DNA of 64,000 bases from Actinomycetota bacterium (GTDB lineage Bacteria; Actinomycetota; UBA4738; HRBIN12), in contig JBBRWM010000001.1 in NCBI GenBank assembly GCA_038249195.1, positions 395,489 through 459,488 of the forward strand, written 5' to 3'. The notes beneath the pieces are model-generated. The model saw nothing but the letters and a program-made list of their open reading frames with translations, was not told the DNA's origin and searched no databases. Positions 38,758-43,719 of this stretch are shown one piece after another (within the stretch, counting starts at the first letter, position 1; every line of letters begins with the position of its first letter). A program made the translations under genes and the position numbers.

Positions 38758-39020
38758 GGTGCCACCTTCCCAAGCCCTCGTTCGGCGATGGACCGCGGAC
38801 GCGACCGGAGGTCGACGTGCCGCTGTCCACTCCTATCGGCGCTCCGGACGAGTGGTTGAGCCGGGGATGCTGCGCCCGATGGCTCGCGGACCTGGCCTGT
38901 GCTGATCTTCATGACTCCCACCTTGTCCGACGGTGCTGATGGGTTCGCCGGCCCCTCGCTCCCACGGGGATCCCGACCCGGGAGAGCGAGCGACCGGCGA
39001 GGTCGCTCTGAGCCTGGTGC

Positions 39021-39224
39021 TTACGCGCCGGCCACCGCGTTGCCGACCGTCTGGAACTTGTCCTTGGACGACGTTCCGAGGAAGGTCACGGCTCCGATGA
39101 TCACCACGGCGATCAGCGCAACCATCAGCGCGTACTCAACCGCGGTCGCCCCGCCCTCTTCGGTGGCGCGAAGCTTCAGGTCGGCCCACCACGTGGTGAG
39201 GCCGGTGTAGGTGCGAAGGAACAT
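39021..39224 (-). CDS. flp: Flp/Fap family pilin
   Basis: Flp motif EEGGATAVEYALMVALIAVVIIGAV in a 67-aa precursor. Confidence 0.75.
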   Translation of the reverse strand: MFLRTYTGLTTWWADLKLRATEEGGATAVEYALMVALIAVVIIGAVTFLGTSSKDKFQTVGNAVAGA

Positions 39225-39358
39225 TTTTCACCCTCCTTCATCGAGGATCCCGTCCGACCGGCGACCCCCTTTGGTCGCCGGAGCGGTCCTTCGTTACCGC
39301 TTGTCGACACCGTAGGGGTGCGGACTTGAGCAGGGAATTCCGCGTTTCCCTGATGGTG

Positions 39359-39377
39359 CGTACGTATCCATACGTAC
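39359..39377. promoter_or_regulatory. AT-richer inverted repeat cGTACGTAT-cc-ATACGTAC upstream of flp pilin gene
   Basis: Perfect 8-nt arms with a 2-nt spacer in an unusually AT-rich stretch, about 135 nt upstream of the flp start and just downstream of the last LuxR regulator gene. Confidence 0.4.
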
Positions 39378-39399
39378 ACAGCTTCGAGACGTTGCCCCG

Positions 39400-40101
39400 C
39401 TACGGGGCGATCGTCCCGACCGTGACGAGACCCGCTTGGGCCGCCAGGCGGATGGCCGCCAGACGGCTGCCGACCCCGAGCTTTCCGTAGATCCTCGCCA
39501 GGTGCGTCGTGACCGTGCGCTCCCGCACCCCGAGGCGGCCGGCGATCTCCCGGGCTGTGAGACCCTCCGCGGCCACGCTCAACACCTCGCGCTCCCGCTC
39601 GGTGAGCTTCACGTCGAGATCCCGCCGCCGTTCGAGCCCATCGGCGATGTGACCCACCGCGGATGGCTCGGGGCCCGCGAGCACCATCTCGCGGTCCGCC
39701 GCCTTGCGCAGCGATTGCAGGAACACCACCGGGTCGATGTTCTTGTCCACGAACCCGTCCGCGCCCACGAACAGGGACCGGGACACGAGGGACGCATCGG
39801 CGTTCGCGCCGCAGCCAAGCACGGCGTGGCCGGGGAACTGCTGGCGGAGCGTGCGGATGAGCCAGAACGAATCATGGGCGCCCGAGAGCCCAAGGCCCAC
39901 CAGTACGACCACGCGCGAACGGCGGACGCGCTGGATGGCGTCCAGGCACAGATCCGCGTCGCCCGCCTCGGCGAGGACCTCCATGTCGGGACGGTCGTCG
40001 ATCAACATCGCCAGCCCCGCCCGCACGACGGGGAGCGGGTCGACCACGACCACGCCCAGCCGGCGTTTGGGGGCGGGGTGCTCATGGTCGGGGCGCGACA
40101 T
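39400..40101 (-). CDS. LuxR/NarL-family response regulator (receiver lacks phospho-acceptor Asp)
   Basis: REC-like N-terminus (LGVVVVDPLPVVRAG...RVVVLVGLGLSG, no Asp at the expected acceptor position) plus a C-terminal HTH_LuxR (LTEREREVLSVAAEGLTAREIAGRLGVRERTVTTHLARIYGKLGV). Confidence 0.75.
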   Translation of the reverse strand: MSRPDHEHPAPKRRLGVVVVDPLPVVRAGLAMLIDDRPDMEVLAEAGDADLCLDAIQRVRRSRVVVLVGLGLSGAHDSFWLIRTLRQQFPGHAVLGCGANADASLVSRSLFVGADGFVDKNIDPVVFLQSLRKAADREMVLAGPEPSAVGHIADGLERRRDLDVKLTEREREVLSVAAEGLTAREIAGRLGVRERTVTTHLARIYGKLGVGSRLAAIRLAAQAGLVTVGTIAP

Positions 40102-40233
40102 GATGCCTTTCGTGTTCGAGCGGGGAGCCCGGCGAGCCCGAGCGCCGTTCCACCTATCGGCACGGCGGCGCCCGGGGATGAGCCGGAGCCTCGCGGGGAG
40201 AGATCGATCCGGGCCGGGGGAACGCCGGAGGCC

Positions 40234-40929
40234 TCAGCCGAGATCGAGCAACCCGAGCTTCGCGGCCTTGGACACCGCCTGCACCCGGGTGCGGACCCCG
40301 AGCTTCCGATACAGCTTCGCGACGTGCGTTTCCACGGTTCGTGGCGAGATGCCCAGGCGCGTGCCGACCTGGTGCATCGTGAACCCCTCGCTGATGAACC
40401 CGAGGATCTGTTGTTCCCGGGGGGTGAGGGTCGCCTCGATCGCGGAGCCCTCCCGCGTGCGCCGCGCGAACACCCCGAGCTGCATCACGGCGGCCTGCTC
40501 CAGATCGGGCGCGACCACGCGATCGCCCGCCGCCACGCGTCGGATCGCATCGCCCACGGTGCGCAACCCGTCGGCCTTGTCGAGACAGCCCGTCACGCCC
40601 GATCGAAGGATGTCGAGGATCGTCGCGCCGTCGGACCGCCCGCTCAAGACGAGCACGCGCGTCGCGGGCGCCATGGCGAGGACGGCCCGGATGACTGCGA
40701 GCCCGTCGCTCGCCCCGTCGAGGTCCATCACGAGGACCTCCGGCTCGAAACGAATGCAGAGGTCGGCCGCGAGCCCTGCGTCGTCGACCTCGCCGGCGAC
40801 GTCGAGCTCGGGCGCGCCCTCGCACGCCAGGCGCACGACGCCGCGGACCGCCGGGTGCCCCCCCGCGATCGCGACCCGGATCGTGCTCGCCGGCGCCCCC
40901 ATGGGGTGGAGGCTACCCCGCGGTTTCAC
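40234..40929 (-). CDS. LuxR/NarL-family response regulator (receiver lacks N-terminal acidic pair)
   Basis: REC (IRVAIAGGHPAVRG...LVMDLDGASDG...GCLDK) plus HTH_LuxR (LTPREQQILGFISEGFTMHQVGTRLGISPRTVETHVAKLYRKLGV). GTGA overlap with the upstream regulator gene. Confidence 0.75.
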   Translation of the reverse strand: MKPRGSLHPMGAPASTIRVAIAGGHPAVRGVVRLACEGAPELDVAGEVDDAGLAADLCIRFEPEVLVMDLDGASDGLAVIRAVLAMAPATRVLVLSGRSDGATILDILRSGVTGCLDKADGLRTVGDAIRRVAAGDRVVAPDLEQAAVMQLGVFARRTREGSAIEATLTPREQQILGFISEGFTMHQVGTRLGISPRTVETHVAKLYRKLGVRTRVQAVSKAAKLGLLDLG

Positions 40930-41588
40930 GCCGTTCGGGAGCCGGCACGCGCGTGTCGCCAGATCATCCGCACGGCCTCCACCTTGGTATGCACACCCAA
41001 TTTGGCCAGGATGTTCTTGACGTGGCTCTGAACGGTGAGCGGGCTGATGCCGAGCTCGAGCGCGATATCGGCCGTCGCACGCCCCTCGGCGAGCGCGCGA
41101 AGGATCTCGTGCTCGCGCTGGGTCAACATCGCCAACCGCTCGGGCCCGGTGGGCTCCGGGAGGGCGTGGCGGAGTCGATCGACGAGCCGAGGCAGATCCG
41201 CGGCGGGAAGCACGAGCTCGCCGGCCGCGGCTCGGCGGAACACGTCGATCAGGGTGCGGTCGCGCTGCGGCGGCAACATCCCGCAGGCGCCGGCCGCGAG
41301 CGCCAGGGTGACGGTGTCGGGGCCGGCGAGCTGTGAGCTCGCGAGCACCCGGACGAGTTCATCGGCGTCGCGGATCGCGTTCACGATCTCGGCCCCACGC
41401 CCGTCGTCGCGGTCGAGGTCCACCACGACCACGTGGGCGAGGCCATCGTGAACCGCCTCGAGCGCCTCCTCGGAGTCCGCGACTGGCCCGAGCACGCGGA
41501 TCGGACCACGTCGAGGCAACGCCAGCAGCAAGGCCTGGGTGAGACCCGGACTCTCGTCCACGACGAGCACGCGGATGGTGGCGATCAC
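40926..41588 (-). CDS. LuxR/NarL-family response regulator
   Basis: REC (IRVLVVDESPG...VVVVDLDRDDG) plus HTH_LuxR (LTQREHEILRALAEGRATADIALELGISPLTVQSHVKNILAKLGV). The conserved Lys of the receiver appears to be missing. Confidence 0.75.
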   Translation of the reverse strand: MIATIRVLVVDESPGLTQALLLALPRRGPIRVLGPVADSEEALEAVHDGLAHVVVVDLDRDDGRGAEIVNAIRDADELVRVLASSQLAGPDTVTLALAAGACGMLPPQRDRTLIDVFRRAAAGELVLPAADLPRLVDRLRHALPEPTGPERLAMLTQREHEILRALAEGRATADIALELGISPLTVQSHVKNILAKLGVHTKVEAVRMIWRHARAGSRTA

Positions 41589-41670
41589 CCCGTAGACATC
41601 GGCACGGCGGCGGCCTCATCTGAATCGGCGCCGGGATGTTCGTCGCGACCGCACGCGAGACACTGGCGGG

Positions 41671-43719
<2,049 letters not shown>

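Follow-up and report, generated by a model that had tools for sequence, protein, structure and literature searches.

The output domains of NarL bind as dimers to inverted heptamers lying 2 bp apart, for example TACCCCT-AA-AGGGGTA, and at some promoters NarL represses from inverted-heptamer sites (PMC4549865). The atypical orphan regulator BldM of Streptomyces binds a 16-bp palindrome of inverted-heptamer layout, TCACcCgnncGgGTGA, and a half-changed version of this site is bound by BldM-WhiI heterodimers (PMC4125116). In Streptomyces the sigma factor WhiG drives the orphan regulator gene whiI, and in Rubrobacter and Actinoplanes it drives the type IV pilus genes directly (PMC8325347, PMC12871210); the published -35 element of WhiG1 is CTCA and the -10 element of WhiG2 is GCCGATAA (PMC12871210). 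For Flp pili themselves, PprB of Pseudomonas aeruginosa, a response regulator of the tad/flp neighbourhood, is found to activate the Flp pilin promoter (PMC6821963).

In our study, a palindrome lying between three tandem response regulator genes and the flp pilin gene of an Actinomycetota bacterium has been analysed by comparison with related loci. The loci compared belong to uncultured soil actinobacteria that are abundant, and in at least 80 of these the site keeps a fixed position in the Flp pilin promoter. The comparison points to the palindrome as a well-supported cis-regulatory element of the flp promoter region, and one of the neighbouring regulators, somewhat more probably than any other protein, may be what binds there.

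Materials and methods

The window is the whole 64-kb stretch of DNA that was analysed (64,000 nucleotides). The comparative sample was obtained by a protein search with RR-C, the regulator encoded next to the palindrome, keeping one genome per species, which gave 80 loci comprising 826 kb. These loci, labelled with L and a number like the metagenome contigs, were chosen by RR-C homology alone and without reference to the palindrome; all of them come from metagenome-assembled genomes (MAGs) of uncultured Actinomycetota/Actinomycetes, and their RR-C identity is 68-99%. The degenerate form of the site is GTACGTAKNNMTACGTA; the metagenome sampling used the exact commonest 16-mer instead. Promoter positions refer to the flp-sense strand, with the first T of the conserved core (window 39376) as position 0. 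The coordinates of all features are collected in Table 1.

Table 1. Genes, promoter elements and other features around the palindrome, in window coordinates.
Feature	Position	Strand	Remarks
TadA/CpaF	37530-36211	-	followed by TadB and TadC
TadZ/CpaE-like ATPase	38757-37546	-	
Sigma-28-like motif upstream of tadZ	38835-38860	-	CTCAACCACTCGTCCGGAGCGCCGAT; 77 nt upstream of tadZ
Hairpin past flp	38988-39008		GAGCGACC-ggcga-GGTCGCTC
flp, 67-aa Flp/Fap pilin	39021..39224	-	Pfam Flp_Fap, E = 2e-13
Two leader hairpins	39282-39301, 39258-39281	-	predicted flp 5' leader; begin at the predicted start
Predicted transcription start	about 39301-39303	-	positions 73-75
-10-like hexamer TACGGT	39309..39314	-	positions 62-67; actinobacterial TAnnnT pattern; recognised through conservation
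Second promoter box	39333..39355	-	positions 21-43; reads CATCAGGGAAACGCGGAATTCCC; consensus CC-TCnGnGAAAcnCGGAATtCC
Palindrome GTACGTAT-CC-ATACGTAC	39360..39377	.	sequence and conservation in related loci
Conserved 16-bp core	39361-39376	-	TACGTAT-GG-ATACGTA (flp-sense); within the palindrome
RR-C, REC+GerE response regulator	39400..40101	-	Pfam
Sigma-28/WhiG-like motif upstream of RR-C	40156..40182	-	CTCAT-N16-TGCCGAT(AG)
RR-B, REC+GerE response regulator	40234..40929	-	Pfam
RR-A, REC+GerE response regulator	40926..41588	-	Pfam
Sigma-28/WhiG-like motif upstream of RR-A	41598..41624	-	TTCAG-N16-TGCCGAT(G)

Results

All the relevant genes around the palindrome, namely the regulator, flp and tad genes, lie on the minus strand, and flp is preceded by a GGAGGG ribosome-binding site. 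The block that is conserved among the relatives reads DUF255 (divergent) / RR-A RR-B RR-C / (membrane protein) / site / flp ... tadZ tadA, and the regulator triplet is always syntenic with the site, in the loci selected by RR-C as well as in the longer contigs selected by the motif. No histidine kinase was found in the conserved block and no other conserved DNA-binding gene near the site in the neighbourhoods compared. A search for tRNA genes found none, and Rfam gave no match, either for the region at E <= 1 or for the whole window at gathering thresholds.

Most relatives have a divergent gene, coding for a membrane protein of 498 amino acids, between RR-C and the site, which remains next to flp. 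This polytopic protein (L001 6709-8205, minus strand) is encoded at the same position in about 50 loci and is absent from the window; Pfam and NCBIfam searches with it gave no match. Its gene starts 50-110 nt from the palindrome, and where it adjoins the site, the site may serve both directions.

Pfam identified only the Response_reg and GerE domains in all three regulators, with no autoinducer-binding domain. The best solved homologue of RR-C is Escherichia coli NarL (E = 3.5e-19). In the alignment of RR-C with NarL (1a04), the phospho-acceptor Asp (D59) is changed to Gly and D14 to Pro, and both changes are kept across 78 unique orthologues; RR-C is also the most conserved of the three. The acidic pocket of RR-B shows GG in place of DD in the window, and in RR-A the conserved Lys is replaced by Pro. 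Judged from their sequences, the three proteins are atypical, orphan response regulators of the NarL/FixJ family. NCBIfam has no equivalogue for them and gave only sub-threshold matches to generic NarL-family models. Their recognition helices are almost invariant, which matches the invariance of the promoter DNA elements described below, and the base-contacting residues of NarL (K188, V189 and K192) are conserved in none of the three. RR-C has 3489 metagenome homologues at E <= 1e-10, and the best 120 of these 3489 are all 74-92% identical to it.

The stop codon of RR-A overlaps the GTG start of RR-B in the sequence GTGA (40926-40929), which suggests translational coupling of the two genes. 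RR-B shows no conservation over its N-terminal 17 or so residues, and its translation may really begin at the internal Met. Upstream of RR-A and RR-C there is in general no autoregulatory copy of the site, the exceptions being L015, L077, L030 and L055. Palindromes rich in TACGT and similar to the flp site lie upstream of RR-C in L077 (5870-5925) and L015 (175-190), and L030 and L055 have a single TACGTAG hexamer upstream of the RR-A promoter. These copies hint at autoregulation in some lineages only.

The preliminary description of the window had placed a palindrome with perfect 8-nt arms at 39359-39377, between the last regulator gene and flp. Such a palindrome is present, starting one base later, at 39360; it lies 22 nt beyond the RR-C stop codon and 135 nt 5' of the flp ATG (39224), and the CC spacer between its arms is non-symmetric. 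The AT-richer pocket mentioned in that description was also borne out, the local GC content being 0.58 against 0.69 in the window. Two arguments for its being unusual did not survive simulation and counting. Perfect 8-nt-arm palindromes with spacers of 0-4 nt number 17 in the window against 17.9 +/- 4.7 in Markov-1 simulations, and for AT-rich ones a single case was observed where 0.67 were expected. GTAC words, which had been called scarce, are over-represented (148 copies where 83 are expected); it is TACGTA that is rare, occurring 3 times in the window, 2 of these inside the palindrome. By the window statistics alone the palindrome is within chance, and a scan of the 64-kb window found no second match to it even with up to 3 mismatches. 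Its non-randomness follows from comparative conservation and not from these statistics.

Among the 80 related loci flp is present in 68, and TACGTA-N4-TACGTA occurs 5' of the first flp in all 68 of them. The flp site has no mismatch in 38 loci, one in 18, two in 9 and three in 2; the site of L053 is also perfect and fell outside the scoring window through the distance filter, and that of L063 is degenerate yet recognisable. The few loci without a site are those where the contig stretch stops before flp. With up to 2 mismatches allowed, the rest of the 826 kb yielded only about 3 further matches. The flanking intergenic sequence is otherwise unalignable across these genomes. A chance palindrome without function would agree with the 17 perfect palindromes seen in the window where about 18 are expected, but the positional conservation between such unalignable flanks speaks against it, and we regard this explanation as hardly credible.

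The commonest form of the site among the relatives is TACGTAG-GA-CTACGTA, their consensus is TACGTAG-RA-CTACGTA and the general form is TACGTAK-NN-MTACGTA. The aligned loci indicate that the conserved unit is two inverted heptamers 2 bp apart, 16 bp in total, and that the palindrome first described is one lineage's version of this 16-bp TACGTA-N4-TACGTA site. The inner flanking pair is T...A instead of G...C in the window, in its conspecific L004 (with a TCGA centre) and in L001/L002, and it is this change that gives the window its perfect 8-nt arms. The pair is complementary in 52/76 unique sites, the switch from G-C to T-A in the window's clade included. All 81 unique promoters have TACG in the distal hexamer, which is kept more strictly than the proximal one, a pattern common for protein sites. 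The centre of the site is asymmetric, position 8 being A in 65/76 sites; since TACGTA is its own reverse complement, a second reading of the site is that of a direct repeat of 10-bp period.

The position 22 nt past the RR-C stop codon, together with an intergenic RNA that folds better than its shuffles (z = -3.6), would suit a hairpin acting in the transcript, either as the terminator of RR-C or as a stem in read-through or leader RNA. However, a terminator scan of 38800-41800 was negative, the stem is A+T-rich with no T run, a loop of 2 nt cannot form, and Rfam holds no matching family. The palindrome is not the RR-C terminator because the site stays with flp past the intervening divergent gene, and it is not an RNA stem because the half-site mutations are uncompensated: changes in the hexamers left 27 broken pairs against 2 double changes, which rejects an RNA or DNA stem. 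A role in the transcript is therefore very improbable. In our assessment the element is very probably a site for a transcription factor.

Conservation in the promoter region sets in abruptly at position -4, and nothing is conserved upstream of the site. The conserved elements are the site itself (positions 0-15), the second box (21-43) and a TAnnnT hexamer (62-67), and the spacing between them shows no variation. In loci selected on the palindrome only, the second box is conserved at 1.5-2.0 bits per position; its sequence TCnGnGAAAcnCGGAATtCC contains a palindrome of its own, GGAATTCC. In 67 of the 81 unique promoters TAnnnT stands at exactly position 62, and in another 5 it is shifted downstream by one base. 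A scan of 38800-41800 for sigma-70 consensus promoters gave no match, the -10 element being recognised through conservation alone. Nearly all of the 81 promoters have a stable leader hairpin that begins within positions 70-76 and whose stem sequence varies from lineage to lineage, and the two hairpins of the window may act as a 5' stabiliser of the pilin mRNA. From the conservation and the onset of the hairpin, transcription is predicted to start at positions 73-75. In most loci the distance from position 0 to the flp start codon is 126-152 nt.

On this map the site would be centred near -66 relative to the predicted start, with its hexamers about one helical turn apart, and the second box, called the GGAAT box hereafter, covers about -51 to -31. 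The GGAAT box could be bound by a different one of the three regulators, or it could serve as an unusual -35 element. An invertible promoter of the phase-variation type was rejected, as the flanking repeat (39310-39321/39394-39405) is not conserved and no recombinase gene lies nearby.

Motifs resembling sigma-28/WhiG promoters lie upstream of RR-C and RR-A. The pattern (C/T)TCA-N14-18-GCCGA(T/A) is present in 66/78 of the intergenic regions between RR-B and RR-C and in 56/62 of those between DUF255 and RR-A. It combines the -35 element of WhiG1 with the -10 element of WhiG2, and it suggests that the regulator genes are under a flagellar-type sigma factor. A third sigma-28-like motif, upstream of tadZ, is kept only in the subclade of the window (the window, L001, L002 and L004).

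The exact commonest 16-mer was found in 120 metagenome contigs, of which 21 are flp promoters with the GGAAT box. RR-C lies upstream in 10/10 of these motif-first flp promoters with enough upstream DNA, and the seven longest have the triplet RR-A/RR-B/RR-C. Most of the 120 matches stand in unrelated contexts, at near the chance rate for so large a collection, and no regulon could be derived from them. In four contigs of about 66% GC that are unrelated to the flp loci (L086, L106, L135 and L148), the exact 16-mer TACGTAGGACTACGTA lies in the divergent intergenic region between an operon for an sCache/HisKA_3 kinase and a REC-GerE protein and cstA, a carbon starvation transporter gene. This arrangement appears to be an independent association of the site with a GerE regulator.

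In two further contigs, L110 (about 2855) and L170 (8096, in reversed orientation), the 16-mer is accompanied by a related box, GGGAAAGTCGGCTTTCC, and by TAnnnT at the same offset as in the flp promoter. The module precedes a gene for a secreted or membrane M23 peptidase, with a tadZ-like gene (49% identity) 2.4 kb away, and the peptidase gene possibly belongs, in a more distant lineage, to the same regulon.

Three pairs of loci (L010/L011, L029/L041 and L057/L059) each come from a single MAG with two full modules of triplet, site and flp on different contigs, which indicates that the regulators and the site were duplicated together.

Discussion

The heptamer consensus of NarL is TACYYMT. The site described here shares with the 7-2-7 sites of NarL/NarP in Escherichia coli the length of 16 bp, the inverted heptamers and the identical outer triplets TAC...GTA; those sites are bound by a GerE-type helix-turn-helix dimer, and NarL is the best solved homologue of RR-C. 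On the other hand, positions 4-6 of the heptamer are GTA here and YYM in NarL, the regulators of this locus are without a working phosphorylation pocket and without a nearby partner kinase, and the presumed target encodes a pilin instead of a respiratory function. A site of the NarL/NarP regulon in the strict sense was rejected on its heptamer, TACGTAK against TACYYMT, which differ at position 4 (G) and position 6 (A).

The regulators themselves can also be compared with BldM and WhiI of Streptomyces. Both cases concern orphan regulators of Actinomycetota with atypical receivers; those of Streptomyces act without phosphorylation and cooperate as paralogues at promoters, as those described here may also do. 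In our loci the receivers lack essential residues of the phosphorylation pocket and the conserved block holds no kinase gene. Moreover, whiI has a WhiG promoter, and RR-A and RR-C have WhiG-like motifs (PMC4125116, PMC12871210). The site has the length of 16 bp and the layout of the BldM site, but its sequence is unrelated, three tandem regulators are present here in comparison to two unlinked ones, and the output is Tad pili instead of sporulation. Most likely, by analogy, the site acts in the manner of the inverted-heptamer sites of NarL or of a BldM site, as an ordinary kind of gene switch.

In case of PprA-PprB of Pseudomonas aeruginosa, a regulator encoded near tad/flp likewise acts on the Flp pilin promoter. 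PprB differs in having a partner kinase, a non-palindromic site (GGCTAATAC) and an unrelated host organism, and it serves as a functional precedent. The sites of BldD, CRP/FNR and BlaI/CopY-type regulators were ruled out by sequence, as was that of PprB (PMC6821963). The pili of Rubrobacter and Actinoplanes resemble the present system as actinobacterial pilus systems with promoter motifs of the flagellar sigma type. There the sigma factor reads the pilus promoters directly, whereas here the WhiG-like motifs are found in front of the regulator genes, and the promoter of flp is of another, regulator-dependent type.

The preliminary description had proposed the palindrome as the operator of the adjacent regulator triplet and had likened it to the boxes of the LuxR family, the classic lux box having a GTAC core; the word it proposed for a search was CGTACG. 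A lux box for LuxR/TraR is also a palindrome of about 18-20 bp for a GerE-type dimer, but the similarity of sequence is limited to the GTAC tetramer. This part of the proposal has to be given up: the neighbouring proteins are of the REC+GerE type without an autoinducer-binding domain, the conserved core is TACGTA and neither GTAC nor CGTACG, and the centre near -66 from the predicted start is not the lux-type position of about -42 over the -35 element. The proposed operator itself fares better, with a conserved element of the flp promoter, a 7-2-7 layout and GerE regulators encoded in constant synteny.

Synteny and site geometry are the grounds for linking the regulators with the site, and on these grounds the binder is, at slightly better than an even chance, one of the three regulators encoded next to it. 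Site and regulators occur together within a single clade, so that this association is not phylogenetically independent. Against the link also speak the NarL contact residues that the three proteins lack, the general absence of a matching site before their own genes, the possible direct-repeat reading and the many unrelated metagenome contexts of the exact 16-mer. With moderate confidence, based on the sequence comparison and the analogies above, the site may be read as an upstream activator operator of the flp promoter for the neighbouring regulator or regulators. Within this proposal a GerE-type dimer would read the site as double-stranded DNA, most likely as a homodimer of one of the three orphan regulators or a heterodimer of two. 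RR-C would be the first candidate, given its conservation, which is the highest among the three, its separate promoter and its place beside flp in the window. The dimer at about -66 would then activate RNA polymerase at a weak promoter, with the GGAAT box over the -35 region and TAnnnT as the -10 element, and the GGAAT box would possibly be occupied by a second regulator or regulator pair.

The main competitor is a genuine transcription factor site of flp which is bound by a regulator encoded elsewhere, while the neighbouring regulators act at the GGAAT box or at other genes; candidates would be global factors, factors responding to a second messenger, or a protein of the winged-helix type which reads the 10-bp direct repeat. 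Two separate conserved elements lie upstream of the -10, TACGTA is self-complementary in a site with an asymmetric centre, and the near-identical promoter module before the M23 peptidase gene has no triplet within 13 kb, all of which would suit such a protein. No other conserved DNA-binding gene occurs in the neighbourhood, however, and the 7-2-7 layout and the symmetry-keeping switch from G-C to T-A fit a GerE-type dimer. We consider a regulator from elsewhere doubtful, though it deserves to be kept in view.

That the neighbouring regulators would activate from the site, instead of repressing, is held with somewhat less confidence than the identity of the binder. A bound dimer could also silence flp, for example together with a protein at the GGAAT box, as NarL represses from inverted-heptamer sites at some promoters (PMC4549865), and the -35 region is taken by a conserved box of non-consensus sequence. 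A repressor operator is nevertheless unlikely: no part of the site reaches into the predicted core promoter, which lies downstream of it, a poor -35 is typical of activator-dependent promoters, and the analogues PprB and BldM/WhiI activate (PMC6821963, PMC4125116).

Activation by the neighbouring regulators would place flp at the end of a plausible cascade, leading from a sigma factor to the orphan regulators and from these to the pilin promoter, a logic which derives from the sigma-28/WhiG-like promoters carried by the regulator genes. It can further be speculated that the site makes up half of a composite promoter at which heteromeric combinations of the three phosphorylation-independent regulators bind, in a three-tier Tad-pilus cascade driven by WhiG and maybe controlled by c-di-GMP; this fuller scheme is tentative, and we think it rather improbable as a whole. 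If it were true, the Tad pili of a large clade of uncultured soil Actinomycetota, together with at least one M23 peptidase gene, would have a three-tier cascade to themselves, and the WhiG to WhiI/BldM logic of Streptomyces would be extended to surface adhesion in non-sporulating relatives.

The map of the flp promoter that results from our analysis is precise and testable, and it comprises the 16-bp operator, the GGAAT box, the -10 hexamer and the hairpins of the leader. Three candidate regulators and, acting before them, a likely sigma factor go with it, and each of these parts can be synthesised and tested without culturing the organisms. The regulatory principle is conventional, and the value lies in annotation and experimental design and not in a new concept.

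Beyond the promoter, a hairpin with an 8-bp G+C-rich stem and without a T run lies 13 nt past the flp stop codon and could attenuate or terminate transcription between flp and tadZ. In lower-GC metagenome contigs (L082, L087, L100, L113, L143, L145, L171 and L173), several of them from freshwater samples by name, TACGTA occurs in arrays of at least five copies at a spacing of about 10 bp, which look iteron-like or centromere-like.
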